Of a DNA stretch of 64,000 nucleotides, positions 44,050 to 63,757 are shown one piece after another. The stretch is from assembly GCA_020718105.1 (NCBI GenBank), contig DYDA01000009.1, forward strand, positions 2,783-66,782, read 5' to 3'. The stretch comes from Micavibrio sp. Lineage in GTDB: Bacteria > Pseudomonadota > Alphaproteobacteria > UBA9219. Numbering within the stretch: the first letter of the stretch is position 1; each line of letters opens with the position of its first letter. A model generated the notes under the pieces. The model saw only the letters and a program-made list of their open reading frames with translations, did no database searches and had not been told where the DNA came from. The translations under genes were made by a program, and so were the position numbers.

Positions 44050-44069
44050 TTTATTAAGGCGCGAGAGCC

Positions 44070-44834: not shown

Positions 44835-44869
44835 GCACTTCCCATCGTCGGAGTTCTGTCCGACGTTTA

Positions 44870-45334: not shown

Positions 45335-45595
45335 CGTCGCATTCTGGCGCGATTCAAAGAGGCAGACAACACAAAAACACTTGTCACGCCAAAACTTTTC
45401 CCACACGACCTCTGCCAAAACGGCCTCAATCAGAATTGCAATAAAGGTCAGAATTCTAGCCGAAAAGGCCAAAATGCAAATTCGGCCAAATTGACGGCCT
45501 AAAAACGAGCAAATAGGCCAAATTCTCCTGTGGAATCACGCGCGGCCAATATCGATACTCACCTCATTGATTGAACCCGTATCGATGAGCATTAC

Positions 45596-45892
45596 ATGAC
45601 AAACGACAACACAGCAATCGCATTACCACTCATCGGAACGCCGAAGTCAAACGCGCATCCGTTATCACGGGAAGCTGTTGCGGTTGAGATCATCCAAGAC
45701 AATTTTGCATCGGATGCCGAGCGCGGTGAGTTTACGCAAGCCGTCAAGATGCATGGGGTTACTTTCCTATATCTCGCCAATTTTCCACTTCCACAGCCTT
45801 CTTCGCGTGACTTGAACACGATTCAGAGACTGGCGCGTTTGTTGTCACGTTTCTGGCCGCAGGCATTGGTTATTGGAGGCTGCCATGAATAA
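45596..45892 (+). CDS. Hypothetical protein, first gene of long operon
   Basis: Overlaps next start and contains its GGAGG RBS. Confidence 0.6.
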   Translation: MTNDNTAIALPLIGTPKSNAHPLSREAVAVEIIQDNFASDAERGEFTQAVKMHGVTFLYLANFPLPQPSSRDLNTIQRLARLLSRFWPQALVIGGCHE

Positions 45893-46319
45893 CAACGAGC
45901 AAATGCGCCTCTGCCTCATGCTGGCATTTCAGAGCCTGATTTCACAAGGCGAAACTGCCAAGTCAAAAGATGCCGATCAAAAGATCATCGTGCTTGCAAA
46001 GCTCATGAATGAGTTTTGCGATCTGCACCTCAAGCAAACATTCCCTGAAAAGACCATCGAGCTTGCCGAAGACAAATGGGCAACAAAGATCGACGCCACG
46101 CTCAACATGCATATTGAAGAGCTGCAAAAGCGTGAACAGACACAGTTGCCCGAAGATCGAGAAACCCTCATCCAATTTTATGACCGCCTTCAGCAGCGCA
46201 AGGTGCGTCGGAAACAATGGGTGTTCTATGCGGAAGCCTCAACGGGACAATTAGCCGATCTGGTCTTGAAATATCTCGACGAGGAAATCGAAGACAGAAA
46301 AACGGGAGGGTATCAATGA
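45885..46319 (+). CDS. Hypothetical helical protein
   Basis: GGAGG RBS; ATGA coupling to next gene. Confidence 0.7.
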   Translation: MNNNEQMRLCLMLAFQSLISQGETAKSKDADQKIIVLAKLMNEFCDLHLKQTFPEKTIELAEDKWATKIDATLNMHIEELQKREQTQLPEDRETLIQFYDRLQQRKVRRKQWVFYAEASTGQLADLVLKYLDEEIEDRKTGGYQ

Positions 46320-46672
46320 CCAACAATGAAAATACGCAGATACACCTCAAAGATTGCGCCATCGGCCCATCGCAGCTACGCGCAGCGCGCGGCATGCTTG
46401 GCTGGTCTCGTGGCGAGCTTGCCAAGGAAGCAAGACTATCGGCGGAAACAATCAAGAATATCGAACACAGCGTTTATTCGCCAAAGGAAGAAACAATCAA
46501 AACCTTGGTTGAGGTCTTCGCGCGTCGAGGCATCCAGTTTGTTCAAAATGAAGCTGTCGTTTCCATTCCTGCCAGTTGCGGGCAAGAGGAAAGCACTCTG
46601 GTTTTTTCTCATATTGGGATATTCCGTATGGAGCTCTCTGTCTCCGAAATCAGGGAGATAGGCCATGACTAA
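46316..46672 (+). CDS. XRE-family HTH regulator
   Basis: SQLRAARGMLGWSRGELAKEARLSAETIKNIE. Confidence 0.85.
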   Translation: MTNNENTQIHLKDCAIGPSQLRAARGMLGWSRGELAKEARLSAETIKNIEHSVYSPKEETIKTLVEVFARRGIQFVQNEAVVSIPASCGQEESTLVFSHIGIFRMELSVSEIREIGHD

Positions 46673-46937
46673 AGCTACCCACCCCCACCGTATCGTCGAT
46701 CAAATTACGACTGCGACAGACAAGAAATACGAGCCTGTCGCGCGCATGGCCGATGCCATCATCGATACGAGATTGGAAAGCGGAGATTGCTTGCCGCAAG
46801 ACCTCCACGCCAAGGGCTTCACACATCAGGACATAACTGCACTTTGGCACTTCGCCAACGCGCTGGCCATCATCGAGCTTAAGTGCCGTACGAACGGCAT
46901 CGGTTCCTCTTATAAACGGGAGGTGCGCTATGCCTAA
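46665..46937 (+). CDS. Hypothetical protein
   Basis: GGAG RBS; overlaps both neighbours. Confidence 0.65.
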   Translation: MTKATHPHRIVDQITTATDKKYEPVARMADAIIDTRLESGDCLPQDLHAKGFTHQDITALWHFANALAIIELKCRTNGIGSSYKREVRYA

Positions 46938-47466
46938 AGTCAAATTGCAGTTGGCAGCCAAACCGCTGGCTGAAATGTTGCAGATTCAAGCGCAGAACGA
47001 AAGCGAACCTAAGCATGTCAAAATCGTCGTTTTTGATGATCAAAACCGCGTGCTGACGGTCAAAAGCAAGACCCGCTTCGTCCTGCCCGGTGGGCGTGTG
47101 GAATGGGATGACGACGATGACGAGGCTGCGGCGCGGCGCGAGGTTTTTGAAACGGCGAACATCACCCTCGGTCTGGTGACCCTCGTAACCCTCGTGAGAA
47201 TCAAAGATCACAACAAACAGATTACAAAAACGATGGTGTTCGTCGGGCGCATGTCTGGCAAGGAGCAAGCTGCGCCTAATCAAAAACAGAAGCATCAATT
47301 TGTAAGCAAGGAGGCGTTTTTAGTGGCGACAGGCTCTCGAAACGATCTTGTGCGCACATTAGTCGATGCTGCTTTCAAGGCTCTGGTCTCCGAGGAGATC
47401 AGGGAAGACCACGATCAGACGATCCTGAGCGGACGTGAAAAATACAACAGCCAATCCCTCTTATAA
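46930..47466 (+). CDS. Nudix-fold protein with degenerate Nudix box
   Basis: LPGGRVEWDDDDDEAAARREVFETANI. Confidence 0.75.
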   Translation: MPKVKLQLAAKPLAEMLQIQAQNESEPKHVKIVVFDDQNRVLTVKSKTRFVLPGGRVEWDDDDDEAAARREVFETANITLGLVTLVTLVRIKDHNKQITKTMVFVGRMSGKEQAAPNQKQKHQFVSKEAFLVATGSRNDLVRTLVDAAFKALVSEEIREDHDQTILSGREKYNSQSLL

Positions 47467-47478
47467 ATGGAGAATTTA

Positions 47479-48696
47479 ATGAGCAAGAACAATCAAGATA
47501 CAATGCAATCAAACGCCTCAAAAGTCGTTTATCTCAACTATGCAGCAACATCGTTTCCCAAAAACCCAGATGTTGTGAATGTCTACAACGAAGCGCTTGC
47601 GCTGCTTCCAGGCGGAAATCGTCAAGGCATCGGCAAAGGAGGCCTCGTCGACGAAGCGCGAGAAATGCTTGCAACAGGCCTTAATGTCGGTAAAGAAAAC
47701 ATCTACTTTTCTAGCGGATCGACGCAAGCTCTCAACGAAATCATTTTGGGTTCTGTAAATTCGGGCGACCATTGCCTTTTCGATAATCGCTCACACAACT
47801 CGGTTGTGCGCCCTATGCACGAGCTGCCTTCTTCCATCGATGCGGAAATGTGCCCGCTTTATCGAGAGGATGAAACCCTTGATCTTGACGCTCTGACATC
47901 GCGCCTTAACACGACTACAAAACTTGTCTGCTTGGTTCACGCCAGCAACGTGACGGGCACGGTCTATGACATAAAAACGGTTATTTCCGCCGTCAGAGAG
48001 AAAGCTCCCCAATCAGTTGTCTTAGTCGATGCCGCTCAATCAGCTGGCGCCATTGATCTGAAGGACGCGCTCAAAGCGGATTATGTGGTATTTCAAGGGC
48101 ACAAACACCTTCATGCCCCACATGGCGCGGCAGTCGTGGTGGCCAAGCGGCACGTTCGCCCCGTCATTTTTGGAGGCGGCCAAACTTTAACGGGTCAGGA
48201 AGGCGACCCGCATCTGCTCGAAGTCGGGACGCAGAACCACGCTGCCATTTACGCCACCGCCGTTGCTTTCGGCATCGCGTCGGACAATCTTCTTAAGCAC
48301 CAGACACACGAACGCGCCCTCTACACAAAGCTACGGTCGGCGCTTGACGGGGTTTATGGGCTAGAACCGCTGCCAGTCAACCCCAAGTTCGACCACGTCT
48401 CTATTATGGCCTTCCGCACTAAGATGGGCACGCCGGAAGGAGATTGGGTTCCGTTCTTGCAGTCGAAAAATATCATCGCTCGCGGTGGGCTGCATTGTTC
48501 CCCGTGCCTGCATGAACAGCTTGGTTTGACGCAGTACGGAACGCTGCGCCTTAGCCTCGGCTGGTACACAACAGACAAGGACGTCGAAGCAGCGGCGCAC
48601 GCCATTCATGAGTTTTCGGATCATCTGAAGACGCATGGTCCGGCACATCCTGTACAGACAAGTTGTTCGGTGTCGTTTCCCTCTAACCGAAAATAA
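47479..48696 (+). CDS. Class V PLP aminotransferase, cysteine desulfurase (SufS-like)
   Basis: YLNYAATSFPK, HNSV, DAAQSAG, GHK PLP lysine, RGGLHCSP catalytic Cys. Confidence 0.85.
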   Translation: MSKNNQDTMQSNASKVVYLNYAATSFPKNPDVVNVYNEALALLPGGNRQGIGKGGLVDEAREMLATGLNVGKENIYFSSGSTQALNEIILGSVNSGDHCLFDNRSHNSVVRPMHELPSSIDAEMCPLYREDETLDLDALTSRLNTTTKLVCLVHASNVTGTVYDIKTVISAVREKAPQSVVLVDAAQSAGAIDLKDALKADYVVFQGHKHLHAPHGAAVVVAKRHVRPVIFGGGQTLTGQEGDPHLLEVGTQNHAAIYATAVAFGIASDNLLKHQTHERALYTKLRSALDGVYGLEPLPVNPKFDHVSIMAFRTKMGTPEGDWVPFLQSKNIIARGGLHCSPCLHEQLGLTQYGTLRLSLGWYTTDKDVEAAAHAIHEFSDHLKTHGPAHPVQTSCSVSFPSNRK

Positions 48697-48733
48697 TTCA
48701 GTTTTAGGGCATATATTTTTTGAGGATTATTCT

Positions 48734-49849
48734 ATGAACGAACAATTTAAACCGGCTATCGCCACAATTATGAACCTTCTTGGGCAGTCAAATATTGAAC
48801 TGCCCAATGAAGGGGGCGCTTTGGAGACGTTCCTAGACCGTGCGCTAGAATATCTTGCGGCAAGCCATGCCATTGGCTCTGTTGCCGAGCAGAAAGCCTA
48901 TATTCTAAGCCGCCTCGTTCCGGCAGAAAAGGCATCAAAGGGAAAGTTCAGCTTTGTTCTTGAACACAACATCGATCCTCAAAAAGGATCGACCGTTCCC
49001 ACAATCCAAGTCAGCGGAACCAGCGGAAACTATCACGCACTTATCATCAAGAGGCAGGACACCCTGCTTAAGGGCTATAAGTGCCAGCAACAACTTAAAA
49101 TAGCTGGAAACCTCTGCCAAGTCGGATTTGCAACAAGCCGCATACGGGCGGATGTTGATTTGGCCAGAGAGTTCCCCACACTGGACAGCCTGAAGAAAGG
49201 CTGCCGTATGGAAGGGCGTCCCATCATCTACTTCCTTGGTGCGGCACGGCGCTTTCCCGATGGAGGGGAGCAAGCCTCCGCTATCAAAGGACAAGTCAAG
49301 GCCGTCAACGCCATTTTTGATACGTTGGAGAGTGCCTTTGGTAACAACGTTATCATTGGAACGGGCGGTTGGGCTGGGACAAAAGAAGGATCGTTGGGCA
49401 TTCCCCGCATTGGTTACCTGCATGCTGTTTCGACTAACCAATTGATTTTGACGACAATGCCGCGTGTTGGGGCTTATGACCGGCATGAAAACCCAACACT
49501 CGAAGTGTTCTGCGGACAGGAATGGGGCGATGACTCTGCCGTGCTGGCCGCAACCTGCGATGCTGCCTTTGTCTTCAGGCCACATGGGACGTGGACACAA
49601 ATCGAGGTCGAGAATTTGCTCGCACAGGACAAGCCCTTCGTCGTGATCGATGACCCTAAAAACAGTCAATTGAGGTCAGACGAAAATAAGAAGCGGATCA
49701 GCACCCAAGGGGGGGACTATTTTGTCTATCGCCACCCTAAGACGGCGGCCAATGATTTATTGCGGAAGCTCAGCGAAGCGGGTTTTATATACTCACGGCG
49801 ACCGTCTCGCCGCCCCGCCGCTTTGCTTGCCGAACCCGCGCACAAATGA
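48734..49849 (+). CDS. Protein with C-terminal SLOG/LOG-like nucleotide-processing domain
   Basis: IIYFLGA, IGTGGWAG, CDAAFVF..HGTWTQIE...DKPFVVI resemble the LOG TGG and GGxGTxxE motifs. Confidence 0.5.
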   Translation: MNEQFKPAIATIMNLLGQSNIELPNEGGALETFLDRALEYLAASHAIGSVAEQKAYILSRLVPAEKASKGKFSFVLEHNIDPQKGSTVPTIQVSGTSGNYHALIIKRQDTLLKGYKCQQQLKIAGNLCQVGFATSRIRADVDLAREFPTLDSLKKGCRMEGRPIIYFLGAARRFPDGGEQASAIKGQVKAVNAIFDTLESAFGNNVIIGTGGWAGTKEGSLGIPRIGYLHAVSTNQLILTTMPRVGAYDRHENPTLEVFCGQEWGDDSAVLAATCDAAFVFRPHGTWTQIEVENLLAQDKPFVVIDDPKNSQLRSDENKKRISTQGGDYFVYRHPKTAANDLLRKLSEAGFIYSRRPSRRPAALLAEPAHK

Positions 49850-50574
49850 AGAGAATCGAGAACACAATGCATACTGCTACCAACATATTTTTCGATCTGG
49901 ACGGAACATTGACTGATCCCAAGGAAGGGATCGTCAACAGCATCGTTTTTGCTTTGGAACAAGTCGGACATGCCATCCCAACGCAGAAAGACCTCAACAA
50001 TCTGATCGGGCCTCCTTTACGGGATTACTTTGAGCGGGAGCTGGACGAGGAAAAAGCCAAGACCGCGATGAAGAATTTTGTACAGCATTACGATTTTGAA
50101 GGAAAGTGCCTGACGGAAAACGCGCTTTATCCAGAAATACCGAGTGTGCTCAACTTGCTTCGTCAACACGGCAAGAGGTTGTTCGTAGTTACGGCGAAGC
50201 CAAAGACCATTGCTGAAAAAATCGTCCGCCACTTTGGATTGGATTCGTACTTTCTTTGTGTATATGGAGCCGAACAGGACGAAACGCGGAGTGATAAAGT
50301 GAAGCTAATCTCCTACGTTCTCGGTCGTGAGCAGATAGCCCCCCAATCCGCCGTTATGATCGGCGACCGCAAACATGACATTTTGGGAGCACTAGCAAAC
50401 GGTGTGGCCAGCATTGGCGCACTATGGGGCTATGGCGAGCCAGGCGAGTTGAAAGCGGCGGGGGCGCAACGGCTGGCCAAGACGCCGCAAGATATCGTGA
50501 GATTTCTGTTGGAACCCGCTGTCCGATCTGTGGGACACGGATGCAGAATTTCCAAACCTTCTACAATGTGTTGA
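49846..50574 (+). CDS. HAD-family phosphatase (5'-nucleotidase/phosphoglycolate phosphatase-like)
   Basis: FDLDGTLTD, IGPPL, MIGDRKHD, WGYG. Confidence 0.92.
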   Translation: MKRIENTMHTATNIFFDLDGTLTDPKEGIVNSIVFALEQVGHAIPTQKDLNNLIGPPLRDYFERELDEEKAKTAMKNFVQHYDFEGKCLTENALYPEIPSVLNLLRQHGKRLFVVTAKPKTIAEKIVRHFGLDSYFLCVYGAEQDETRSDKVKLISYVLGREQIAPQSAVMIGDRKHDILGALANGVASIGALWGYGEPGELKAAGAQRLAKTPQDIVRFLLEPAVRSVGHGCRISKPSTMC

Positions 50575-50584
50575 GGCAGCAATA

Positions 50585-51898
50585 ATGACTGAAACATTTA
50601 GTTTTGATCTTGAGAAAGTTAGAACGAGAAACGCTCTCATTCACGCCAACTCCATCTTTTCAGGTCGGGGCGTGCGTCCAGATGCGCATCAGTCCGTTAC
50701 GAACATTAGACCGTTCGTCCGCGCCGTTGCCGCAGGCTCGCATCCGCAAATTTCTGTCGGCGAGAAAAAAAGTATCGTTCTTATTGGCCTCGACTCGATC
50801 AAACACAGTTTCGCGGAGAAAGTTTTCAAGCCAGATCACTTGGTTTGCATGACAAGCGTTTTTCCTTCGACGTCGATTCGTGTGTGGCCAACGGCCCTGA
50901 CGGGATATAGCCCCGAGACGTTTGGTTCCGTTGGCCCCGTTTTCTATGCCAAGGAAATCGACGCGCTGTACAATGCGCTGGATGACTCCTATCGGGTTCA
51001 AGAGTCGTTTGTTGTCGATCCCAAAGTAACCGACCAGCACCCCATAGGTAGCAAGGACAATCTTTTCAGTGACCTAAATGTTCTTGGTTTCCAAACCGTC
51101 TGCATCAACGGGTTCTATGCTCATAAAAAGAGTCGCTGGTCTCAGGCCATGCAAGAGAATGCCGGACGCTATGTGACGTCAAAGTACGATTGGCGCAATA
51201 TCACGATGCAACCCGACCTAATTGTCGCTTCCATTCGGGAAGACGTTTCTGAAGCCTTGACATCAATGAACAAAGGGCAAAATGCGCTTGTCTGGACGCT
51301 ATCAGATATCGATTGTTACGTGCATGAACATGGATATTCAGACAATTTAAAAACAGCGCTAGACGAATTAGACGGGTTTTTCCGCGAATTGGCTAATAAT
51401 GGCCACCTTGTAATCGCCTTTGCGGATCATGGGCAGGTTCCTCAAGTCGTCAGTACCTTTACCGAAGGCTGGGACAATATCCACAGCGATGAGAATTGCC
51501 GTAGGCCATCCGGCGGAGCTGGAAGAGTCCGGTGGAGTTATCCGCGTCCGGGGCACGAACAAGCCCTTAAAGAGCAAATCGAAGGTCTTTTGGGCGATAC
51601 CGCCGCCGTCATATGGCGCGCCGATCTTGAGAAGCTCGGCATCCTTTCATTAGGAGAAAATCTTAAGAGCCAGATTGGAGAGATTGTGGTTCTCGGTCTG
51701 ACCGAGGACTTTCCGTTGGCCCTGCACGGTGACGGCTTCATATATGAACACGGATCCGTAAGCAGAGACGAGATGCTCGTCCCCCTGATGATTTACAAGG
51801 CTGCCGCGAAAGAGGCGTCCGCCCATACACTTACTGTGCCATCGAGAGAAGACGCTTTGGCTCACCCCGCAACCTTCAACCCGAAACTGGGAGGATAA
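50585..51898 (+). CDS. Alkaline phosphatase superfamily nucleotide pyrophosphatase/phosphodiesterase
   Basis: [36 protein letters not shown] metal ligands. Confidence 0.82.
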
Positions 51899-51900
51899 AA

Positions 51901-53358
51901 ATGTCCGACAAATCTAAAAGTGAGAAAAACATGAAAAATCAGATGAAATTCTTCAATACATTGACGCGCGAGGCGCAGCCTCTTGCCCCGATTAATGCGA
52001 ACGAGATAGGGTTGTACACATGCGGCCCAACTGTTTACAGCTACGCCCATATCGGCAACCTGCGCACATATATTTTCGAGGATATCTTGCGCCGCGTTCT
52101 TGAAAAATCTGGCTATAGCGTCAAGCATGTGATGAACATCACCGATGTTGGCCATCTGCAATCCGATGCTGATGAAGGCGAAGACAAGATGGAAGTGGCG
52201 GCCCGGCGCGAAAAGAAGTCACCTTGGGAAATCGCTAAGTTTTTCGAATCCACCTTTTTCAGCGATTGCGCGGATTTGAATGTCCAGCGCCCACATGTCG
52301 TTTGCCGCGCTACAGAGCATATTCCGGAAATGATCGAATTCGTGAAAGCTCTTGAGGAAAAAGGCATCGCTTATGCCGTCGACGGCAACGTCTATTACGA
52401 TACGTCCAAGTTTTCTAGCTACGCTGATTTTGCACGGCTTGATTTCTCTCAAATGCAAGAATTTGGGCGCGTCGAGCAGGATTCGCGCAAACGCAATCCC
52501 CAAGACTTTGTGCTCTGGTTCTCTCAATCGAAATATCCGAACCAGATCATGAAATGGGATTCTCCTTGGGGCGTCGGTTTTCCGGGATGGCATATCGAAT
52601 GCTCGGCGATGGCCTCAAAATATCTTGGCGAGCAATTCGACATTCATTGCGGCGGCATCGACCACATTCCCGTTCACCACACGAACGAAATCGCGCAAAG
52701 CGAAGGCCGTTTCGGACACCGGTGGGTCAATCATTGGATGCATGGCGAGTTTCTCGTCTTGGACAAAGGAAAAATGTCGAAGTCCAAAGGAGGTACGCTG
52801 ACGGTCGCTACCTTGAAAGAACTTGGCTATGACCCGATGCACTTCCGCTATCTCTGCTTGAATGCACATTACCGAAGCCAGCTTAAGTTCAGCTACGACT
52901 CCTTGGATGGTGCGCGCAACGCCTATGAAACGCTCCAGCACAAGCAGGCGGATTGGGCGGCAGAACCAGAATCGCCCCTGTCGGCTCAAGACAAAAAGTT
53001 GGTCGCCGATTACGAAGGGCAATTTTGGAGCGCGATGACCGATGACCTCAATGCGCCCCTAGCGTTGTCCGCGCTTTGGACGGGACTTCGTGACGACCGG
53101 ATGTCAACGACGGCGAAACAAGCTCTTTTTGGGACGGTGAATGAGGTTCTCGGCATCACAAAGCCGGAAGAAGAAATGAAGTTGGCTCCTGAATTGGAAC
53201 AGCTCATCAAAGATCGAGAAGCGGCACGTGGCCAGAAGGATTGGAAGCGAGCCGATGAGCTTAGAGGCAAGCTGGAAGATCAAGGCATTCTTATAAAGGA
53301 TAGACCCAATGGAACGGATTGGTTCGTAAAAAAAAACAAAACTAGCCTGACACCCTAG
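51901..53358 (+). CDS. cysS: Cysteine--tRNA ligase
   Basis: [49 protein letters not shown]. Confidence 0.96.
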
Positions 53359-53411
53359 TTCTACAAGACAAAAAAGACTGATTTTACAACAACTTATTTT
53401 GGGAGGCTAAA

Positions 53412-54455
53412 ATGAGCACAGGGGAAATTTATGCCCTGACGGCAAAAGAGGCAACGGCACCGGCCATCGATCCTTGGAACAATGTAGTTCAAGAAGATTT
53501 AGCGCCGTTCATTCAATTCCACGGATTGCAGACCACTGATGAAATTCAGGGGCTCCTCGACAACGAGAAGCTGAGGCCGCTTGCTAAATCTGCGGTCTCC
53601 GGCATTGGCATTACAGACGATGTCATTGGTTTCCTTCAAAACAAGCCGTCTTCCGTGGTTGCTATTTCTGGTTTCGATACGGCAGGAGATCTGCACTTTG
53701 GCAATCTTCTTGTCCTCAAGCAGCTCATGATCCTTGGACAGAAAGGATGCCAAGTCAGGATTCCGCTTGCCGATCTTGAGGCCATTGCCGCGCGCGGTGA
53801 AGACAGCAAAACCTCTGAGGATCGCGCGAATTCGACCATGATTCCCAATCTTGTTCAGTTGGGATTTAAATCCGAAAGTGTTTACATCCGATCCACAGTT
53901 CCACGAATTCTGGACATGATGGCGGTCGTTTCTCGTGGCACAGCTCCTGATAAGATGGAAAAACTCTATGGCCGCGCACTTTCTGGGCCGGAGATTTTTT
54001 CACTGACTTTTATGGCAGCTGACCTGCTTCGGCCTCAAACAGAAGGCATCAAACACACGATTGCCGTTTATGGCATCGATGAAGCACCCCACATCCGGGC
54101 GATTAATCAGATTGCTATTGATGTAGGCCTGAAGCCCATTGCCGGTCTTTTTAGTCCCCTTGTGCCGAGCAAGCAAAACTCGTCAATCAAGATGAGCAAA
54201 AGCCTTCAGAAACGTGGTGCAAACCTGTCACTGACGGCGGCTGTCGAGGACGCACGCGATACGGTCATTCAGTACGAAGTACAAGACCCTTGCATGGTGA
54301 AAGCCTTGCGGAAGCATTTTTTGATTGGGTCTGTTCTGAGGGATGATGCCGTCGAGTGCGACCTCGAATGCGCCGCCTGCAAAAGAGAGTCCGGAGCTGC
54401 AATTTTCGGCTTTATGGCGAACAAAAACCTTATTCAGAAACTCGCAAATTTATAA
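53412..54455 (+). CDS. Divergent class Ic (archaeal-type TrpRS-like) aminoacyl-tRNA synthetase paralog
   Basis: IDPW, SGFDTAGDLHFGN, ADLEAIAARG, AADLLRPQ, GIDEAPH, KMSKS, C-x21-C-x3-C-x2-C. Confidence 0.8.
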   Translation: MSTGEIYALTAKEATAPAIDPWNNVVQEDLAPFIQFHGLQTTDEIQGLLDNEKLRPLAKSAVSGIGITDDVIGFLQNKPSSVVAISGFDTAGDLHFGNLLVLKQLMILGQKGCQVRIPLADLEAIAARGEDSKTSEDRANSTMIPNLVQLGFKSESVYIRSTVPRILDMMAVVSRGTAPDKMEKLYGRALSGPEIFSLTFMAADLLRPQTEGIKHTIAVYGIDEAPHIRAINQIAIDVGLKPIAGLFSPLVPSKQNSSIKMSKSLQKRGANLSLTAAVEDARDTVIQYEVQDPCMVKALRKHFLIGSVLRDDAVECDLECAACKRESGAAIFGFMANKNLIQKLANL

Positions 54456-54473
54456 ACCAAAGGAGATTTTCAA

Positions 54474-55481
54474 ATGGATAAGACAGAAAAAGCACTTAAA
54501 GTGATTGCGCCTTATATCGTCAAGACGCCTTTGCTCAAATCTAAGGATTTAAGCAAAAAACTCGGCTGCGAACTCTACTTCAAATATGAGCACCTGCAGG
54601 TGGCGGGATCCGTGAAGGCTAGAGGTTCTTTCCTGAAAGTTTTTTCCGCCGAACGGACAAATCCAAAGGGTTATGTGACAGCATCAAGCGGCAACCACGG
54701 TCTGAGCATTGCAATGGCTTCTCAGCAGGCTGGCGTAAAGCTGAAACTGTTCATGCCCGAAACAACACCTGAATCGAAAATTCAGAAAGTCAAAGCCTTG
54801 GGCGTCGACTTGGGCATAACCGGAACCTCATGGGACGATGCGAACGACGCCGCCTTCGCCTACGGAAAAGAGACCGGAGCCGAATTTATCCATGCCTTTG
54901 CCGATCCGACCATCATCTTGGGACACTCGACGGCTGCGCTGGAGTGTCTTCAGGATATGCCCTCGGTTGATATCGCTATTTGTTCCATCGGCGGTGGCGG
55001 CATTGCACACGGATTTTTGGGCTATCTAAAAAGAAAGCTCCCCAATCTGCGTTGCTATGGCGTCGAAACCTATGGCGCAGAGTCCATGCTGACGAGTTTT
55101 CAGCACAATCGCGTTATGACGATTCCTGAAATCACATCGAAGGCATCCGCCATCGGCGTGCGCGCGCCCGTGGACGAGACGTTCAGTTTTGCGAAAAAGA
55201 ACTTGAATGGCCTTGTCGCTGTCAGCGATTACGCTGCTGCGGTCGCCCAGACGACGATCCTGAATTACGACAAACAGCTCGTCGAGCTTGCGGCATCCTG
55301 CTGCGTGGCCGCCCTGCAAGCCGAGAAGATACCCAACATTCAAGGAAAGAAGGTGCTGGTGCTCTTGTGCGGCGGCAACACCACCATGTCTGAGCTTGGC
55401 CTTGAAGCTACAGCCCAGCCGAAGCCGCCAACATTTCTGGCAAACGACAAAAGAGCTGTTGTGTCCTGCTGTCAATTATAA
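54474..55481 (+). CDS. PLP fold-II serine/threonine dehydratase-like enzyme
   Basis: FKYEHLQVAGSVKARG, ASSGNHG, IGGGG, LCGGN. Confidence 0.88.
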   Translation: MDKTEKALKVIAPYIVKTPLLKSKDLSKKLGCELYFKYEHLQVAGSVKARGSFLKVFSAERTNPKGYVTASSGNHGLSIAMASQQAGVKLKLFMPETTPESKIQKVKALGVDLGITGTSWDDANDAAFAYGKETGAEFIHAFADPTIILGHSTAALECLQDMPSVDIAICSIGGGGIAHGFLGYLKRKLPNLRCYGVETYGAESMLTSFQHNRVMTIPEITSKASAIGVRAPVDETFSFAKKNLNGLVAVSDYAAAVAQTTILNYDKQLVELAASCCVAALQAEKIPNIQGKKVLVLLCGGNTTMSELGLEATAQPKPPTFLANDKRAVVSCCQL

Positions 55482-55493
55482 TTGGGGAACAAA

Positions 55494-56339
55494 ATGAAAG
55501 ATAAACAAAAAATTATTTTTACGATCATGGGATGCGGTTCGGCTTATGGCGTGCCGACGGCAGGAAACGGATGGGGTATCTGCGATCCCAATCATCCGGC
55601 GAACAGGAGACTGGCCTCGTCCGTTGTTCTGCGTTCGGAAACCGACACGATCATCATCGATCTTGGGCCTGACTTCCGCCAGCAGACATGCACGCACAAT
55701 GTACGAGAGATATCCGGCGTTTTGTTTACGCATTCCCACGCTGACCACATCACCGGGATATTTGAGCTGCCAATGTTTACGCAATGGCAAAGGGGTGACA
55801 TCCATTGTTTTGCGACACCTGAAACCTTGGTGGGCATCCAAAAAAGATTTCATTACCTGTTTGATCCGAACATCACGGTCTATCACTACGGCGGCGGAAG
55901 AATTCTTTGGCATGAAATCGAATATGGCCAAGAAATGGTCGTTGGCGACATGCCAATCCTTCCTTTTCAACAAGATCATGGCTTTATGTCCAGCACAGGG
56001 TTTCGCGTCGGCGACATAGCCTATTCGACGGACGTGAAAAAGATCGACGAAGCCAACAAAGCCTTTCTCAAAGATCTGAAAATATGGGTGCTCGATTGCA
56101 ACGGCATAGAGGTCAGCCCTGTCCACAATCACCTCGATCAGGCTCTCGCGTGGATTGAGGAGATAAAGCCTGAACGCGCCATCCTGACGCATCTCAGCGA
56201 GACCGTAGACTACGTTACAACAAGCAAGAAACTGCCGCCAAATGTCGAACTGGCAGTCGACGGCATGTCCTTTGAAACCTTTGTCCAAAGACCGACATGC
56301 CGTCGTCCTTTGCGTCAATATTCACCCAGCAACATATAG
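55494..56339 (+). CDS. PhnP-like metallo-beta-lactamase phosphodiesterase
   Basis: GCGSAYGVP, DLGPDFRQQ, THSHADH, YSTD, LTHLS. Confidence 0.9.
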   Translation: MKDKQKIIFTIMGCGSAYGVPTAGNGWGICDPNHPANRRLASSVVLRSETDTIIIDLGPDFRQQTCTHNVREISGVLFTHSHADHITGIFELPMFTQWQRGDIHCFATPETLVGIQKRFHYLFDPNITVYHYGGGRILWHEIEYGQEMVVGDMPILPFQQDHGFMSSTGFRVGDIAYSTDVKKIDEANKAFLKDLKIWVLDCNGIEVSPVHNHLDQALAWIEEIKPERAILTHLSETVDYVTTSKKLPPNVELAVDGMSFETFVQRPTCRRPLRQYSPSNI

Positions 56340-56349
56340 GAGAAGAGAT

Positions 56350-57381
56350 ATGAACGACGAAAACGGAAACTTCATTTACAAAGCTCGCCCTTCGCTTCAG
56401 GCGGGCACAAAAATTGGCATCGTGTCACCCGGAAGCTGGGACGATTCGCCCAATTATGGGTTTCTCGATGCGCTTAGGGCGTTTTGGGAAAAGAAGGGTT
56501 TTGATGTCTGCATCCATCCGCAGAATTACTACAAGGACGGCGTGCTTGCTGGTTCCGACGCGGCCAGAGCCAAAGCGTTTATGGACATGGTCAAGAATCC
56601 CGAAATTGGCGCAATCATGTTTGCGCGCGGATGTACGGGTTCCATCCATATTCTCGACATGCTCGATTATGATGCCATTAAGGCCAATCCAAAACCTATC
56701 ATTGGTTCTTCCGATACAACGACGCTGCTTCACGCGATAACAAAGAAAAGCGGCGTTGTGACATTCTATGGACCTATGGGCTGTCACTTCGCCGATCCGG
56801 CGAATGACCAGCGCACCTGCGATGACCTAATCACGGCGATCAATGCCGGAAATGAAGAGTACGAAATGACGTATCCTGAAGTCAGTTGTTTGCGTGAGGG
56901 AAAAGCCGAAGGATGGCTTGTTGGCGGGCACATGAACCGCATGCAGCTTCTCATGGGGACGCCGTATGACTGCCTTCCTCAAAGATCGCTGGTCGATGGC
57001 GTCGTTCTGTTTATTGAGACTGTGGACACAACCCGGCTTGAAATCGACAACATTTTAAGCCAGTTCCGTTTGGCCGGAAAGTTGCAGACCGTGCGGGGGC
57101 TTATTGTCGGGGAAATGCTGGGCGTACAAGATGGGGAGACCAGCTTGGCGCGAAAGGGAGAACGAACTTATGGCCGTGATGTTCAAGGCATTATCGCCAA
57201 GGCCATGAAAGAAATATCGCCCCGCGTTCCGGTCGTTTGGAACTTTCCCTGTGGGCACGGTTCGTATCTCTCGACGATGCCCATCGGGAGCCACGTTAGC
57301 CTCGCTACGAGCAAGCAAGATGGAACACGGCTCTCTTTCCGGCCTGTGCCGAAAAGTGCGCCGATTATGTGTTATCTGTAA
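56350..57381 (+). CDS. S66 peptidase (MccF / LD-carboxypeptidase family)
   Basis: IGIVSPGS, LAGSDAARA, GSSDTT (Ser), LFIET (Glu), PCGH (His). Confidence 0.88.
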   Translation: MNDENGNFIYKARPSLQAGTKIGIVSPGSWDDSPNYGFLDALRAFWEKKGFDVCIHPQNYYKDGVLAGSDAARAKAFMDMVKNPEIGAIMFARGCTGSIHILDMLDYDAIKANPKPIIGSSDTTTLLHAITKKSGVVTFYGPMGCHFADPANDQRTCDDLITAINAGNEEYEMTYPEVSCLREGKAEGWLVGGHMNRMQLLMGTPYDCLPQRSLVDGVVLFIETVDTTRLEIDNILSQFRLAGKLQTVRGLIVGEMLGVQDGETSLARKGERTYGRDVQGIIAKAMKEISPRVPVVWNFPCGHGSYLSTMPIGSHVSLATSKQDGTRLSFRPVPKSAPIMCYL

Positions 57382-58324
57382 ATAGCTCGGTGGAAAGGTA
57401 ACGCTCGGCACTGTCTGGCAAAAGCGTGACGATGGTCTTTCCGGCCATTTCGGGGCGCTTGGCAAGCTGGATCGCTGCCGCCACCGCTGCTCCGGATGAT
57501 ATACCAGCAAGGATGCCTTCCTTGCGCGCCAGATCCCGCGCGTGAGACAAGGCATCCTCGTTGGTGATATTCAAAATTTCATTAATTCCGCTGACGTTCA
57601 AAATGTCAGGGACAAAATTGGCCCCGATACCTTGGATCTTGTGAACGCCGGGTTTTCCACCTGTCAGGACGGGGCTGTTGGCAGGTTGAGCTGCGACTAT
57701 CCTGATATCGGGTTTGTGCTTGCGCAAGCCTTCAGACACGCCTTGCACAGTTCCTCCCGTTCCGACACCGGCCACAAAGACATCGACTTGCCCGTTTGTG
57801 TCCGCCCAAATTTCTTCTGCTGTGGTGCGCGTGTGAATGGCGGGATTGGCTGGATTGGAAAATTGACGCGGCATAATCGCATTCAGGCGCGTTTTGACGA
57901 CCTCTTCAGCCTTGCGGAGCGCGCCCGCCATGCCTTCTTCTGCGGGCGTCAGGATAATTTCAGCGCCCAAGAAGGACAGAAGCTTGCGTCGCTCAATAGA
58001 CATATTGTCCGGCATGGTCAAGACAAGACCATAACCCTTCACGGCGGCGATAAACGCAAGACCGATGCCTGTATTTCCAGATGTCGCTTCAACAAGAACG
58101 CCACCGGAAACCAGCGTGCCGTCCCGTTCGGCAGCTTCGATCATGCCCAATGCGGTCCTGTCTTTAACCGATGAAAGCGGGTTGAAGTATTCCAGTTTCG
58201 CCAGAACGGTGGCAACGCTTCCAGCCTCTTGAGGCATCCTGTTTAAGCGGACAAGCGGTGTTCCGCCAATGGTCTCAATGATATTTTGATAAGTGATACC
58301 GCGTGCGGGTGATAGATTCGACAT
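57365..58324 (-). CDS. cysK: Cysteine synthase A
   Basis: KLEYFNPLSSVKDR, ATSGNTG, GVGTGGT, HKIQGIGA, ERYLST. Confidence 0.96.
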   Translation of the reverse strand: MSNLSPARGITYQNIIETIGGTPLVRLNRMPQEAGSVATVLAKLEYFNPLSSVKDRTALGMIEAAERDGTLVSGGVLVEATSGNTGIGLAFIAAVKGYGLVLTMPDNMSIERRKLLSFLGAEIILTPAEEGMAGALRKAEEVVKTRLNAIMPRQFSNPANPAIHTRTTAEEIWADTNGQVDVFVAGVGTGGTVQGVSEGLRKHKPDIRIVAAQPANSPVLTGGKPGVHKIQGIGANFVPDILNVSGINEILNITNEDALSHARDLARKEGILAGISSGAAVAAAIQLAKRPEMAGKTIVTLLPDSAERYLSTELFTDNT

Positions 58325-58340
58325 GGATTTTCTCCTCGTT

Positions 58341-59201
58341 TCAATGATTTTCGGGAATAACGGCTTGATCCATTTCGTCTGCCGGTCGTGCACTTCTTGG
58401 CGCACCGACGATTTTTGCGGGGATGCCAGCAACCGTAGTGTGGGGAGGTACGTCCCGAAGCACTACGCTTCCTGCAGCTATGCATGCTCCGGCACCTATT
58501 TCGACATTGCCAAGGATCGACGCGCCCGCACCGATCATAACGCCCGAGCGCACTTTGGGGTGACGGTCGCCTTGCTCCTTGCCCGTTCCACCGAGCGTGA
58601 CATTGTGAAGGATGGAAACGTGATCTTCAACAATTGCCGTTTCTCCGATGACGAGGCCCGTCGCATGGTCAAGCATAATGCCGCTGCCAATCTTTGCGGC
58701 GGGGTGAATGTCTACGTCGTACAAAAGAGAACTGCGGTTCTGAAGGAGCAACGCATCGTCTGTTTCTCCATTCAGCCAAAGCACATGAGCCAGACGATGA
58801 ATCTGAAGGGCATGGAAGCCCTTAAAATACAGAAACGGCGTCAAAGCGTCCGTGACGGCGGGATCTCGTGCGACAACGGCCTCCAAGTCGCGGGAGGCCG
58901 CCAAAACAAGATCGGGGTGTCTTTCATAAAGACCAGACAGCCTTTTTTCCAAGACGCTCGGCGCAAGCAGCGCGTCCGTTTGTTGGTGCGAAAGTGTTCG
59001 GCTTAGGCTTTGGGGTAGACTCTCACTGTCCAAAATGATCGTCTGGATCAGGGTTGCCGATAAAGAGCCGTGTCGAAGCCTGTTTTCGGCAGCTAGGCGA
59101 AGTTTGAGCCAAAGCCCCTCTAAAGGCGAGGAACCTGCCTTTAGCAAAAAAGAGGCGGATTGTTTTGATGAGCTGAGCGCTCGTAAAGCGAAAATGTTCA
59201 T
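58341..59201 (-). CDS. cysE: Serine O-acetyltransferase
   Basis: RDPA, FKGFHALQ, DIHPAAKIG, DHATG, TLGGTGKE.GDRHPK. Confidence 0.95.
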   Translation of the reverse strand: MNIFALRALSSSKQSASFLLKAGSSPLEGLWLKLRLAAENRLRHGSLSATLIQTIILDSESLPQSLSRTLSHQQTDALLAPSVLEKRLSGLYERHPDLVLAASRDLEAVVARDPAVTDALTPFLYFKGFHALQIHRLAHVLWLNGETDDALLLQNRSSLLYDVDIHPAAKIGSGIMLDHATGLVIGETAIVEDHVSILHNVTLGGTGKEQGDRHPKVRSGVMIGAGASILGNVEIGAGACIAAGSVVLRDVPPHTTVAGIPAKIVGAPRSARPADEMDQAVIPENH

Positions 59202-59288
59202 TTGAGGTCTCTGTGGTTCGCCTGAAAATCAGGCTTGTTGTTCCTTGTGGCGCAAGCGCCTCTAACCTCGCGGCAACCGCGAGAAAAA

Positions 59289-59318
59289 TTAGTTACAAGG
59301 ACAACAACAGAGAAACAT
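59289..59318 (-). CDS. Cys-rich leader peptide MFLCCCPCN (putative attenuator of cysE-cysK)
   Basis: ATG TTT CTC TGT TGT TGT CCT TGT AAC TAA; GGAG 10 nt upstream; complementary to cysE start region. Confidence 0.8.
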   Translation of the reverse strand: MFLCCCPCN

Positions 59319-59349
59319 GAACCTACGGCTCCATATAGTTAACGAGGTC

Positions 59350-59378
59350 ATTTTACTTATTTTCAGCAATGAAGTCAA
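59350..59378 (-). promoter_or_regulatory. Sigma70 promoter for leader-cysE-cysK
   Basis: TTGACT-17 nt-TAAAAT. Confidence 0.75.
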
Positions 59379-59416
59379 CCAAATGCGTTCTACACTGGTT
59401 GCAAGGCAAGAAGATT

Positions 59417-59650
59417 TCATCGGCACGGAAGCAACAGCTTGCGAAAAACACTATAATCTATAAGCACTTCAGTAAACGCAGCATCTTTCGGAGCATTTTC
59501 GACCTCAGCAGCCAGCTTGTCCTGAAACTCGCGGCTATATTCCTTGATCGGTGGGCAAACGCAGGCGGGGTTAGAACTTGCCGTTTCGCAGGCGCTTAAC
59601 GAGATCAGCACGAGTGCGAGGAGCATCCATCGTTGCACGGAGTTGAGCAT
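59417..59650 (-). CDS. Phage o-spanin (Rz1-like) lipoprotein
   Basis: LSAC lipobox, CVCPP; overlaps the upstream TM gene in another frame. Confidence 0.65.
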   Translation of the reverse strand: MLNSVQRWMLLALVLISLSACETASSNPACVCPPIKEYSREFQDKLAAEVENAPKDAAFTEVLIDYSVFRKLLLPCR

Positions 59651-59810
59651 CTTTGATCTCCACGATTTTCTTGAGTTGGTCATAGCGTTCTGCGGTGCGG
59701 CCTGATTGCTTCGCGCCGAGAAGCACAGCGGCCACAGATGCGGCAATCGCGCCCCAGCCGATGATTTTTATGAGGTTGCTGGAAAACCAGCCCGTTATAA
59801 TCGTCCACAT
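59571..59810 (-). CDS. Phage i-spanin (Rz-like)
   Basis: N-terminal TM plus coiled coil; directly follows endolysin. Confidence 0.6.
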   Translation of the reverse strand: MWTIITGWFSSNLIKIIGWGAIAASVAAVLLGAKQSGRTAERYDQLKKIVEIKDAQLRATMDAPRTRADLVKRLRNGKF

Positions 59811-60475
59811 CAGCGCAGCCCTTTCCGATTGTCGTCGATACGCGCCCAGATCATCACCCCGATGCCGATCAGCGTGATTGCCAAAAGCAGCCATTTGGCA
59901 ATGTCGAGATAAGGCACGAGTGTTTGAAGCGCGTCACGGGCTGGATCAAGGCCGTCTTGTACCGCCTGCAGCGCCCCAAGGCCAACGGTTGCCGCCGTAG
60001 CGGCCTTACCTCCCCTTACGGTGCGCGTGTGTTGCAGATTTTTGGCCGGAGGCTCCACACCTGCCAGCACCAAGGCTTTGTCGATTTGTGCGCCCGTGTA
60101 AGGCTGCTGGCCGTTCTCGTGCTGGATAATGGCTTCGACAAGGGGCTTCAGGTCGGCGTGGGCGTGCATGTCAAGCGTTTGGTCTGGTGCAAAACCCGTC
60201 TCGTCCGAAACAGCCTTGGTGTACGCCGCCGTGTCGTTTTCATTCGGGGGAGCCCAGCGCTCGATGATCTGCCGTATTGTTCGCAACCCGTGTTTGACCT
60301 GATAGACGATTAAGACGCGCGCCATCGCTCGGATGCCATAAATCTGGCTCTTAAACATGAAAAAATCAGGATCCGTCTGCTGTTCAGCCAACCCTTGCCA
60401 TGCGGTATCCGTCCGGCGAAGATTGCCCGGATTGTTATTACGGACACCTCGTGATAGTTTTTCTTGAGTCGACAT
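59810..60475 (-). CDS. Phage lysozyme-like endolysin/virion protein with C-terminal TMs
   Basis: RGVRNNNPGNLR, GIRAM, RWAPPNENDT.AY, IIQHENG; AAAGGAGG RBS. Confidence 0.8.
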   Translation of the reverse strand: MSTQEKLSRGVRNNNPGNLRRTDTAWQGLAEQQTDPDFFMFKSQIYGIRAMARVLIVYQVKHGLRTIRQIIERWAPPNENDTAAYTKAVSDETGFAPDQTLDMHAHADLKPLVEAIIQHENGQQPYTGAQIDKALVLAGVEPPAKNLQHTRTVRGGKAATAATVGLGALQAVQDGLDPARDALQTLVPYLDIAKWLLLAITLIGIGVMIWARIDDNRKGLR

Positions 60476-60502
60476 AAGTAAACCTCCTTTCAAGGATTTA
60501 AG

Positions 60503-61737: not shown

Positions 61738-61751
61738 CTTGCCCTCCCTCG

Positions 61752-63744: not shown

Positions 63745-63757
63745 GGTGTTTTCTCCC

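Follow-up and report, generated by a model that had tools for sequence, protein, structure and literature searches.

Gene content of the cassette

This report concerns a cassette of about 12 kb in which a second full-length cysteinyl-tRNA synthetase (CysRS) and a diverged relative of tryptophanyl-tRNA synthetase (TrpRS) are encoded among pyridoxal phosphate (PLP) enzymes, hydrolases and genes for cysteine synthesis. The cassette lies in a window (the whole stretch of DNA analysed) of 64,000 nucleotides on contig DYDA01000009.1 of the Micavibrio sp. assembly GCA_020718105.1. In what follows, G numbers denote genomes (G000, this genome; G006, its closest relative; other G numbers, further relatives), C numbers contigs and L numbers loci; the window lies on C27. 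Open reading frame (ORF) listing and family scans placed ten plus-strand genes (g01 to g10) at window positions 46930-57381, spaced by gaps or overlaps of -4 to 53 nt, followed by a convergent cysE-cysK pair at 57365-59201; every gene that an earlier reading of the same letters by a model (the original prediction) had listed here does exist. The variable cargo of the locus (window 47468-59498) consists of g02 to g10 together with cysK and cysE.

The first gene of the plus-strand run, g01 (46930-47466), encodes a Nudix-fold protein (NUDIX, 1.9e-10) and is the last gene of a conserved phage module on the left; its stop at 47466 abuts the start, at 47467, of the first cargo gene, g02 (47467-48696), which encodes a class-V PLP enzyme of the cysteine desulfurase family (Aminotran_5, 5.4e-49). 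The g02 protein scored 205.9 bits against TIGR01977, under the cut-off of 377, its closest solved structures are cysteine desulfurases (1.5e-21), and its sequence contains GHK and GGLHC motifs, which we take to be the desulfurase lysine and cysteine loops. Next in order are g03 (48734-49849), encoding a SLOG-like protein of 371 amino acids (aa), g04 (49846-50574), encoding a HAD-superfamily phosphatase that resembles phosphoglycolate phosphatase or PpaX (HAD_2, 5.4e-31; every NCBIfam match under its cut-off), and g05 (50585-51898), encoding a phosphodiesterase or phosphatase of the AlkP superfamily (Phosphodiest, 1.4e-8). The second CysRS is encoded by g06 (51901-53358; TIGR00435, 470.9 bits against a cut-off of 340) and the archaeal-type TrpRS relative by g07 (53412-54455; tRNA-synt_1b, 5e-15). 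A further PLP enzyme, of the threonine/serine dehydratase and serine racemase group, is encoded by g08 (54474-55481; PALP, 2.1e-66); it scored 231.7 bits against TIGR01127, under the cut-off of 378.75, and its solved relatives are threonine deaminases and serine racemases. The g09 gene (55482-56339) encodes a PhnP-like metallo-beta-lactamase (MBL) fold protein of phosphodiesterase type (Lactamase_B_2, 6.8e-30), whose top solved match is 3py5, a "beta-lactamase-like" entry (1e-46), while PhnP itself (3g1p) matched at only 1e-10. The last plus-strand gene, g10 (56242-57381), encodes an MccF-like serine peptidase of family S66 with both the N- and the C-terminal Peptidase_S66 domains; its true start is likely M37 at 56350, 10 nt past the g09 stop. 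On the minus strand, cysK (57365-58432; PALP, 2.6e-73; TIGR01136, 422.6 bits), for which M37 at 58324 is the likely start, encodes O-acetylserine sulfhydrylase, and cysE (58341-59201; SATase_N, 6.2e-25, and Hexapep) is a second copy of the serine acetyltransferase gene.

A single contig of 13,431 bases in the probable source run covers window 46646-60076, and pieces of the cassette at least 99% alike are present in two further studies (one DNA library and one RNA library), and the cassette is not an assembly artefact. The runs in which the cassette is best represented are groundwater and aquifer metagenomes, one of them perhaps the source; small shares in wastewater and sludge runs were given no weight. 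In the RNA library, contigs at least 99% alike covered 29 of 30 bins at low depth over cassette and phage genes alike, which points to presence rather than transcription. A promoter and terminator scan, which returned 10 promoters against 14.0 expected from shuffled sequence and 24 terminators against 21.1, was not used as evidence.

A variable slot in a tailed prophage

When window 44001-64000 was searched as DNA against genomes of the genus, positions 44001-47467 and 59450-63988 were found repeated around different DNA in G005:C1, in G008:C2 (twice) and in contig C17 of the same genome, and protein comparison between the slot copies confirmed both the left and the right module. The left module (44070-46937, plus strand) comprises a 254-aa protein, a 98-aa ORF, a 148-aa protein that we call the anchor (45873-46319), an HTH_3 protein (46217-46672; HTH_3, 2.9e-7) and a 90-aa protein (46665-46937), with a 200-aa minus-strand ORF (44870-45472) lying within it. 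At both DNA and protein level, this module matches several copies, located in this genome (C17) and in those of relatives; the anchor protein is encoded by 23 of the 71 genomes of the order, every one of them from one family. The right module (59417-63789, minus strand except for two ORFs) is the late end of a prophage with phage lysis and tail genes; it includes a lipoprotein-like ORF of 109 aa (59417-59746, minus), an endolysin-like protein (59810-60565, minus; phrog_873, 5.5e-64), a DUF4268 protein (60503-61441, plus; DUF4268, 1.9e-21), a 192-aa ORF (62159-62737, plus) and the phage protein phrog_2448 (62719-63789, minus; 2.7e-48). In G005:C1, the right module lies at most about 4 kb downstream of a tape-measure gene and stands in line with genes for the major head protein, the protease, the portal and the terminase. 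Ten different cargos were found enclosed by the two flanks (in the window, G000:C17, G005:C1, twice in G008:C2, and in L068, L070, L071, L072 and L076). As a moron-type locus between an HTH/Nudix module and the lysis and tail genes, the cluster makes up the variable cargo carried by a temperate, tailed prophage. Homologs of g01 that are 56-61% identical head different cargos, and DNA homology with G005 stops at window 47467; the Nudix gene, which had originally been counted as a member of the cluster, belongs to the conserved phage module and lies outside the variable cargo. Similarly, the cluster had been described as prophage-adjacent, and while the prophage is real, the cluster sits inside it.

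Other copies of the slot carry cassettes in which an extra aminoacyl-tRNA synthetase (aaRS) stands beside biosynthetic-looking enzymes. The cargo on G000:C17 (1-17000, L063) encodes a PLP-decarboxylase-like protein (10903-12648), a radical SAM protein (9398-10390), a YcaO protein (8009-9391), a tyrosyl-tRNA synthetase (TyrRS; 6571-7950) that shares only 26% identity with the housekeeping enzyme, as well as an AstE/AspA-type hydrolase (5566-6543); a 112-aa ORF is also found there (10549-10887). The first of two cargos on G008:C2 (1-26000, L060/L061) consists of a TyrRS, two weak AMP-binding-like proteins, an aminotransferase and an AstE/AspA-type hydrolase, and the second of MetK (8602-10086; 68% identical to the host copy), an APH-type kinase, an 844-aa protein, a methionyl-tRNA synthetase (MetRS; 13645-15276; 48%) and an amidohydrolase. 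Both methionine-using enzymes, MetK and MetRS, are duplicated by this second cassette, which also encodes a large protein of 469 aa; eight paralogous HTH-type proteins of 220-310 aa (2150-8587) precede the MetK/MetRS cassette. On G043:C32 (189411-209410, L076), two radical SAM proteins, a luciferase-like monooxygenase, an SDR, a Zn-ADH, an AMP-binding enzyme and a class-III aminotransferase accompany a second TrpRS, which is of bacterial type and 40% identical to the housekeeping TrpRS of G000 used as reference; this cassette resembles a small-molecule cluster equipped with a resistance gene for TrpRS. The G005:C1 cargo holds helicases, an MmeI-type restriction-modification gene and an M20 peptidase.

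Of 20 further regions taken, L082 (517 bases) and L087 (985 bases) were dropped as too short, leaving 18 loci with 93 cargo proteins. Among the top 25 of the 121 cargo families in these loci, radical SAM (six), WYL/WCX (four) and aminotransferases (three) were the most frequent, with two each for PEP mutase, TPP enzymes, OTCase, DDAH, D-Ala-D-Ala-ligase/ATP-grasp and helicases, and no aaRS appeared in these top 25. Slot copies in G024, G022, G068, G045, G050, G023, G021, G063 and others (L068-L086) are described by family counts only; cargos among them include an AcrB-type pump as well as PEP mutase with TPP enzymes, a phosphonate-type combination. Spare aaRS were found in at least 5 of the 23 slot copies examined (this cassette and four others), a lower bound because the BLAST references were restricted to the Cys, Trp, Tyr and Met enzymes and MetK; four of these five also hold an amide hydrolase.

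The cassette is an accessory gene set. The genome (1.91 Mb, 96% complete) has a housekeeping cysS on C32 (509.5 bits, compared with 470.5-470.9 for the cluster copy) that is 32% identical to g06, so that two cysS genes exceed the cut-off; it also has a normal trpS on C42 (328.8 bits), a housekeeping MBL gene on C18 (38-39% identical to g09), two further S66 genes (C11 and C36) and another cysE on C11 (55% identical to the cassette cysE). No g07 was found in any of 40 relatives. The best MBL matches to g09 were 36-43% identical (19 of 24 relatives with a match) and the best S66 matches to g10 at most 49% identical (22 of 24), identities so low that none of these relatives carries an ortholog of the cassette copies. 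The cassette cysK is the only cysK/M gene over cut-off in the assembly. The chromosomal cysK site of G006 (G006:C2 146324-147226, L088) is empty in G000:C14 31188-31204, where the flanks lie 16 bases apart, and cysK is patchy among relatives (present in two of nine in the same genus and in 5 of 15 in the family). The original prediction had named separate housekeeping copies of cysS, trpS and cysEK as a check. Such copies exist for cysS, of which the cassette gene is not the sole genomic copy, and for trpS; for cysEK the expectation holds for cysE and fails for cysK. Since cysK is missing from most of the host genus, a role of cysE and cysK in precursor supply, as had also been proposed, is plausible.

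With regard to occurrence elsewhere, the metagenome contig L010 keeps the gene order CysRS, TrpRS-like, PALP (94-97% identity) together with the start of the MBL gene (81% over 26 residues), and L011 keeps CysRS, TrpRS-like and PALP in order at 70-74% identity. For more distant homologs of g03 (45%), g05 (50%) and g07 (48%), the longest contig measured 9652 bases in each case and came from the same source; relatives of g05 and g07 have a 6654-base contig in common, and relatives of g03 and g05 have 10847- and 8607-base contigs in common. Other distant homologs lie on contigs of 49163, 35859 and 13313 bases. The matching contig sizes are an indirect indication, and they suggest that the g03, g05 and g07 families co-occur on distant metagenome contigs, which, with the two contigs that keep the gene order, agrees with the predicted co-occurrence of these genes in other genomes. 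The TrpRS-like profile had no match in public genome contigs or viral contigs and matched two short contigs among metagenome contigs, and the SLOG-like and AlkP-like profiles had no match in viral contigs. The SLOG-like profile matched three genome loci, the neighbours of which are unrelated to the cassette; in two Rhodospirillales metagenome-assembled genomes (MAGs), the neighbours of the g03 homolog are GntR, DHDPS-family, aldehyde dehydrogenase and FAD oxidoreductase genes. On one Rhodospirillales MAG contig (CAXXGD010000052.1; L013 1-10000), GC content is 26-38% upstream of the SLOG-like homolog and 59-69% downstream; the low-GC 10 kb, which holds no ORF of at least 150 aa, is perhaps a chimeric join or an unusual insertion.

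Only 2 kb of contig remain past the end of the window, and the far prophage end lies outside the sequence seen. On the left, synteny with G006 stops at the cobW stop codon (window 39505, C27:42287), and the first gene past it, a dUTPase gene (39520-39978, minus; dUTPase, 1.6e-30), is probably on the prophage or island side of the boundary. An LPG_synthase_C (DUF2156) protein (41209-42288, minus; Pfam, 1e-9) is paired with a 146-aa ORF (40772-41212, minus); both are found again close to a further copy of the element, in G068:C38 (62% and 35% identity), and the pair seems to be element backbone rather than cargo. DUF2156/LPG_synthase_C is the fold of aminoacyl-tRNA-dependent transferases, and the pair lies upstream of the left module. 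In the comparison of window 1-39505 (C27 693-42287) with G006:C1, cobW of the relative abuts the block that is found at the start of the present contig (C27:693); here, about 24.5 kb (window 11536-36097, tRNA-Ser included) separate these blocks, through rearrangement, insertion or misassembly. Upstream of this tRNA-Ser, positions 19873-26278 hold a series of NAD-related genes, which encode a NAPRTase-like protein (628 aa), a long NAD synthase (878 aa) that includes a CN-hydrolase domain, and an NAD kinase. A repeat about 110-240 bases long, with copies 78-89% alike, is present on at least 13 G000 contigs and also at L088 3108-3233 and L054 3137-3375.

Enzymes of the cassette

By its AlphaFold model (pLDDT 80.9), g07 adopts a full-length class Ic TrpRS fold that includes the C-terminal domain; the top Foldseek matches were 3a04 and 3jxe (TMq 0.74-0.75, probability 1.0), and the model matches archaeal and eukaryotic TrpRS structures across approximately 350-380 aligned columns. 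A profile of the g07 family aligned end to end with the TrpRS of Aeropyrum pernix (3a04; 7.9e-28; profile 5-328 against 3-354 of 372 residues), and the cysteine-rich C-terminal stretches of the two proteins coincide in the printed alignment. The H95-x-G97-N98, Y220-G-I-D-E224 and K260-M-S-K-S264 motifs and the cysteines C294, C316, C320 and C323 are invariant in all nine aligned family members, and M201-A-A-D204 is likewise invariant in the family. The description of g07 as a degenerate TrpRS therefore has to be withdrawn, as the protein is neither truncated nor motif-less. The C-terminal cysteines may bind a [4Fe-4S] cluster; the TrpRS of Thermotoga maritima is said to carry an Fe-S cluster. 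Set against 55 more distant relatives (not checked as canonical TrpRS), family members carry A in place of S in the P-S-G stretch, M201 where the x-A-A-D-I-L helix has Q, and E224 instead of the Q of GxDQ; G221-I-D223-E224 thus stands where GxDQ is expected, with E in 12 of 12 family members and Q in 39 of the 55 relatives. The M-A-A-D of g07 resembles the indole-binding helix of bacterial TrpRS, for which Met129 and Asp132 are named in an abstract, so that an indole substrate for g07 remains likely.

Among the TrpRS equivalogs (TIGR00233/PRK12285), the trpS model gave g07 56.4 bits, under the cut-off of 176.75, and its best model, NF008925, gave 101.3 bits against a cut-off of 451. The family is tiny; a word-indexed search of 5.8 billion clusters returned eight matches, and an exhaustive search of 1.84 billion representatives returned seven at E of at most 1e-30 and 285 at E of at most 0.001. 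With g07 so far under the trpS cut-off and so rare, a new function fits better than a simple resistant copy.

For g03, no Pfam, NCBIfam or PDB match was found by sequence. Its model (pLDDT 83.7) combines an N-terminal helical/beta domain with a C-terminal Rossmann domain of the LOG, Moco-carrier or YgdH type, and Foldseek matched the C-terminal half to the Moco carrier protein (2iz5/2iz6), YgdH, TM1055 and LOG (probability 0.99-1.0, TMt 0.68-0.75); in the model, this half has the fold of the SLOG/LOG superfamily, as its description as SLOG-like had implied. The catalytic motifs of LOG are GGGxGxMG and PGGxGTxxE; the invariant T210-G-G-W-A-G215 and G285-x-W287-T288-x-I290-E291 of g03 resemble these motifs yet deviate from them. 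The family comprises 12 homologs including g03 itself, with proteins of 371-404 aa. The g05 protein scored 35.1 bits against Pfam Phosphodiest (cut-off 23), and no solved relative was detected by sequence. A two-metal site of the AlkP/NPP type follows the pattern D, T (the nucleophile), D..H, DH and H. In 30 homologs of g05, D70, T96 (in FPSTS), D243, H247 and D281-H282 are invariant and H389 is near-invariant; the catalytic motifs are hence intact, the metal site of AlkP/NPP type is complete, and the nucleophile is a threonine.

The g06 protein carries tRNA-synt_1e (4.2e-97) and CysS_C (2.6e-9) domains with readable HIGN and KMSKS motifs. It also matched the model of the mycothiol ligase MshC (TIGR03447, 7.5e-63) at 212.7 bits, which does not reach the cut-off of 485.1, and a mycothiol-type ligase was on this ground rejected as an identity for g06. 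Among solved structures, MccF entries were the top matches of g10 (3.3e-26 to 2.8e-21), ahead of muramoyltetrapeptide carboxypeptidase 6uuk (4.4e-16), and against the LD-carboxypeptidase (LdcA) equivalog the protein scored 91.4 bits, under the cut-off of 378. This places g10 nearer to MccF than to LdcA, in keeping with its original naming as an MccF-like peptidase; hydrolysis of an aminoacyl-nucleotide is a predicted activity.

Interpretation and rival explanations

We tentatively read the cassette as a lysogenic-conversion unit carried by the phage, a putative antimetabolite "weapon plus immunity" centred on cysteine plus an indole amino acid; we rate this reading somewhat short of evenly probable. 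The combination, on a temperate phage, of a spare target enzyme with enzymes that modify amino acids and with an amide hydrolase fits weapons with their own immunity best, and the four other slot cassettes with an extra aaRS beside biosynthetic-looking enzymes support a role of the spare aaRS as immunity or ligase. The genomic arrangement of a self-resistant-target cluster is present, in that the cluster aaRS is accompanied by a housekeeping aaRS of the same specificity (cysS), with trpS separate. The enzyme roles that we infer would be as follows. CysE and CysK would make cysteine for a host lineage that mostly lacks cysK, and g02 and g08 would reshape cysteine or serine, or mobilise sulfur, to provide sulfur or a modified three-carbon amino acid. 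The g07 enzyme would adenylate tryptophan or an indole analogue, activating it for transfer to a tRNA or another acceptor, and g03, g04, g05 and g09 would trim a nucleotide- or phosphoester-bearing intermediate. The g06 CysRS would be an insensitive copy of the target or a source of Cys-tRNA, and the MccF-like peptidase g10 would cleave the toxic aminoacyl conjugate inside the producer. A bolder version, which we regard as doubtful, is that groundwater phages swap cassettes of antimetabolite plus insensitive target through one slot, each built around a different aaRS (Cys/Trp, Tyr, Met, Trp). The present cassette would then combine cysteine sulfur and an indole amino acid with a trimmed nucleotide into a new, non-ribosomal mimic of an aminoacyl-adenylate, with g07 (possibly iron-sulfur-binding) as ligase, the foreign CysRS as immune target or donor and the MccF-like protein as safety valve.

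A number of observations weigh against the weapon-plus-immunity reading. The product, its toxicity and the resistance to it are all predictions from the genes. Six of the ten plus-strand proteins are of hydrolase type (Nudix, SLOG-like, HAD, AlkP, MBL and S66), a set that fits degradation as well as synthesis, and the family scans found no ligase or transferase beyond the aaRS relatives, no oxidoreductase and no methyltransferase. A crude hydropathy scan found no membrane protein, hence no exporter, in the cassette, and the gaps between genes (at most 53 nt) are too small for a precursor peptide gene. Two aaRS types in one cassette are unusual for a single-target inhibitor, and the limited reference set revealed aaRS genes in just one of the 18 further copies of the slot. 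The SLOG-like family also occurs without the other cassette genes, which are absent within 10 kb of the homolog in the two Rhodospirillales MAGs, and a genome-wide profile search (run with no positive control) found no g07 or g05 relative in the three MAGs with a SLOG-like homolog. Finally, with cysK as sole genomic copy, part of the cassette may simply serve host metabolism.

This last point leads to the possibility of auxiliary metabolism, in which cysteine synthesis, sulfur mobilisation, salvage of nucleotides or phosphoesters and extra charging with Cys and Trp would give a fitter lysogen or a higher phage yield and no toxin would be made. The cysK evidence (the sole cysK/M gene, the empty site that holds cysK in G006, and its presence in only two of nine relatives of the genus) favours such a function, as do a hydrolase-rich set that fits breakdown or salvage and the lack of a recognisable exporter. 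We nevertheless consider it unlikely, since the rare g03, g05 and g07 travel together as in a dedicated pathway rather than general metabolism, housekeeping CysRS and TrpRS are already present, g06 at only 32% identity to the host CysRS is foreign rather than a dosage copy, and sister cassettes with YcaO, radical SAM and adenylating enzymes are not salvage. The MccF-like protein and the spare aaRS copies would also suit a cassette that confers immunity only, where insensitive CysRS and TrpRS, the MccF-like hydrolase, phosphoesterases and competing cysteine protect against aaRS-directed antibiotics made by others. The Nudix, AlkP, MBL, HAD and LOG-like proteins could dismantle an aminoacyl-nucleotide stepwise, and the slot also holds defence cargo (the MmeI-type restriction-modification gene, helicases and WYL proteins). 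However, eleven genes are many for resistance alone, g07 is too diverged for a mere insensitive TrpRS, the two PLP enzymes would have no clear role and the sister cassettes look biosynthetic, all of which makes immunity alone rather improbable.

Homologs of CysRS are known to act as ligases, as MshC does in mycothiol synthesis. The cassette might yield a non-toxic specialised metabolite, such as a cysteine-containing thiol, cofactor or signal, with g06 or g07 as an ATP-dependent amino-acid ligase of the MshC kind. The match of g06 to the MshC model points in this direction, as does the combination of cysteine supply genes with a phosphatase, as found in thiol pathways. By contrast, g06 exceeds the cysS cut-off, remains far under that of MshC and keeps the CysS_C anticodon-binding domain, the family scans found no glycosyltransferase or deacetylase, and the MccF-like peptidase and the spare aaRS of the sister cassettes fit conflict better, so that we hold a benign metabolite to be decidedly unlikely. 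In a conflict between phage and host, spare aaRS could replace enzymes disabled by a defence system or toxin, or could serve stop-codon recoding, given that the codons for Cys and Trp and UGA share the codon box UGN. Both CysRS and TrpRS read UGN codons and defence genes occur in the slot; this explanation is nonetheless very improbable, as it leaves the PLP and phosphoesterase genes without a function, all ORFs are open in the standard code and no PADLOC system was matched. The tRNA complement led us to reject recoding as such; the only tRNA in the window is tRNA-Ser(GCT) (26309-26401), and the 45 tRNAs of the genome are all standard, with a single one for each of Cys, Trp and Tyr and no suppressor or extra tRNA. 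A known defence system was rejected likewise, as PADLOC 2.0 related g02 to SspA/DndA (a generic desulfurase match), matched g01 weakly (2.9e-4) and gave no match for eight of the ten proteins.

If the weapon-plus-immunity reading is correct, temperate phages move small-molecule weapons and matching insensitive aaRS between strains, the spare-aaRS signature provides a search handle for such weapons, and a new enzyme family derived from TrpRS has been taken up into biosynthesis; inhibitors of aaRS are proven antibiotic leads. Even if the cassette serves metabolism, the prophage is unusual in that it brings together the only cysK of its host, the gene for another CysRS and that for a relative of TrpRS of which just a few sequences are known.

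Relation to known systems

Several known systems share parts of the logic proposed here. The microcin C system consists of MccA to MccF, with MccF cleaving the aminoacyl-nucleotide for self-protection, and MccF proteins are the nearest solved relatives of g10; the cassette differs in that no MccB/ThiF-type adenylyltransferase, MccC exporter, MccE acetyltransferase or precursor peptide was found among its proteins. Clusters with a resistant aaRS include those for albomycin (SerRS), agrocin 84 (LeuRS) and indolmycin (TrpRS), which, like the cassette, have a second aaRS gene inside a small-molecule cluster, but which are chromosomal or plasmid-borne and have one aaRS type each, known ligases or transferases and otherwise different gene sets. 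Sublancin on SPbeta is an example of a temperate phage that carries a weapon and its immunity, and the known phage-borne cases are mostly ribosomal peptides. A weapon with immunity as lysogenic-conversion cargo is what we propose here as well; by contrast, the cassettes described here consist of enzymes only, include spare aaRS, and occupy a slot whose content is swapped between related prophages.

The tiarins, trifolitoxin-like aaRS inhibitors that belong to the ribosomally synthesised and post-translationally modified peptides (RiPPs), are a second case in which an aaRS borne by the biosynthetic gene cluster and duplicated by a housekeeping copy is read as immunity, according to the part of the preprint available, which also names indolmycin (bioRxiv 10.64898/2025.12.02.691738). 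Cassette and tiarin clusters share this duplication, and the tiarin cluster families, as far as described there, also differ by aaRS type, as the slot cassettes do; the cassette, however, has neither the TfxB/TfxC FMN-dependent dehydrogenases nor a precursor peptide (with a conserved Gln in tiarins). Membership of the cassette among RiPP, microcin C or tiarin clusters was rejected because the defining genes are absent from it.

In the sbz pathway for altemicidin, SB-203207 and SB-203208 in Streptomyces, the available portion of the account describes an IleRS homolog, SbzA, that adds isoleucine to a sulfonamide, a scaffold derived from beta-NAD via a PLP enzyme, later removal of the ADP and ribose parts, and sulfur that comes from cysteine (PMC13518217). 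To that extent, the sbz cluster and the cassette share an aaRS homolog with a housekeeping copy elsewhere and a PLP enzyme, and the use of an aaRS homolog to make an aaRS inhibitor, a nucleotide building block and cysteine sulfur are features of sbz that resemble what we propose here. Set against the sbz genes named in that portion, the cassette lacks an SbzP-type aminotransferase, a cupin, a GNAT, a carrier protein and an F420 enzyme, so that only general classes are common to both; it is phage-borne, combines a CysRS with a TrpRS relative, and would use Nudix, AlkP, HAD, MBL and LOG-like proteins for trimming. The likeness is one of logic and does not rest on sequence comparison.

As for g07 itself, the non-canonical TrpRS-A1, TrpRS-A2 as well as TrpRS-A-like homologs, with a possible [4Fe-4S] cluster, are reported, in the part of the paper available, to sit with a tRNA-Trp(A73) gene and ORF1 (PMC5370408). 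By this description, on which the comparison depends, they resemble g07 as diverged archaeal-type relatives beside a canonical TrpRS, with a possible C-terminal [4Fe-4S] cluster and an occurrence on bacterial metagenome contigs, and they differ in their neighbours and in the tRNA gene, as the cassette has none. In the literature searched, which left most subscription journals and supplements outside, we found no pathway with this gene set, in agreement with the original prediction, no account in which a CysRS gene confers self-resistance or phages carry aaRS cassettes, and no natural compound directed at CysRS. The logic of cluster-borne aaRS and that of phage-borne weapons are thus both known; what is new within that literature is the combination of genes, the family derived from TrpRS and the phage slot with its exchangeable content.

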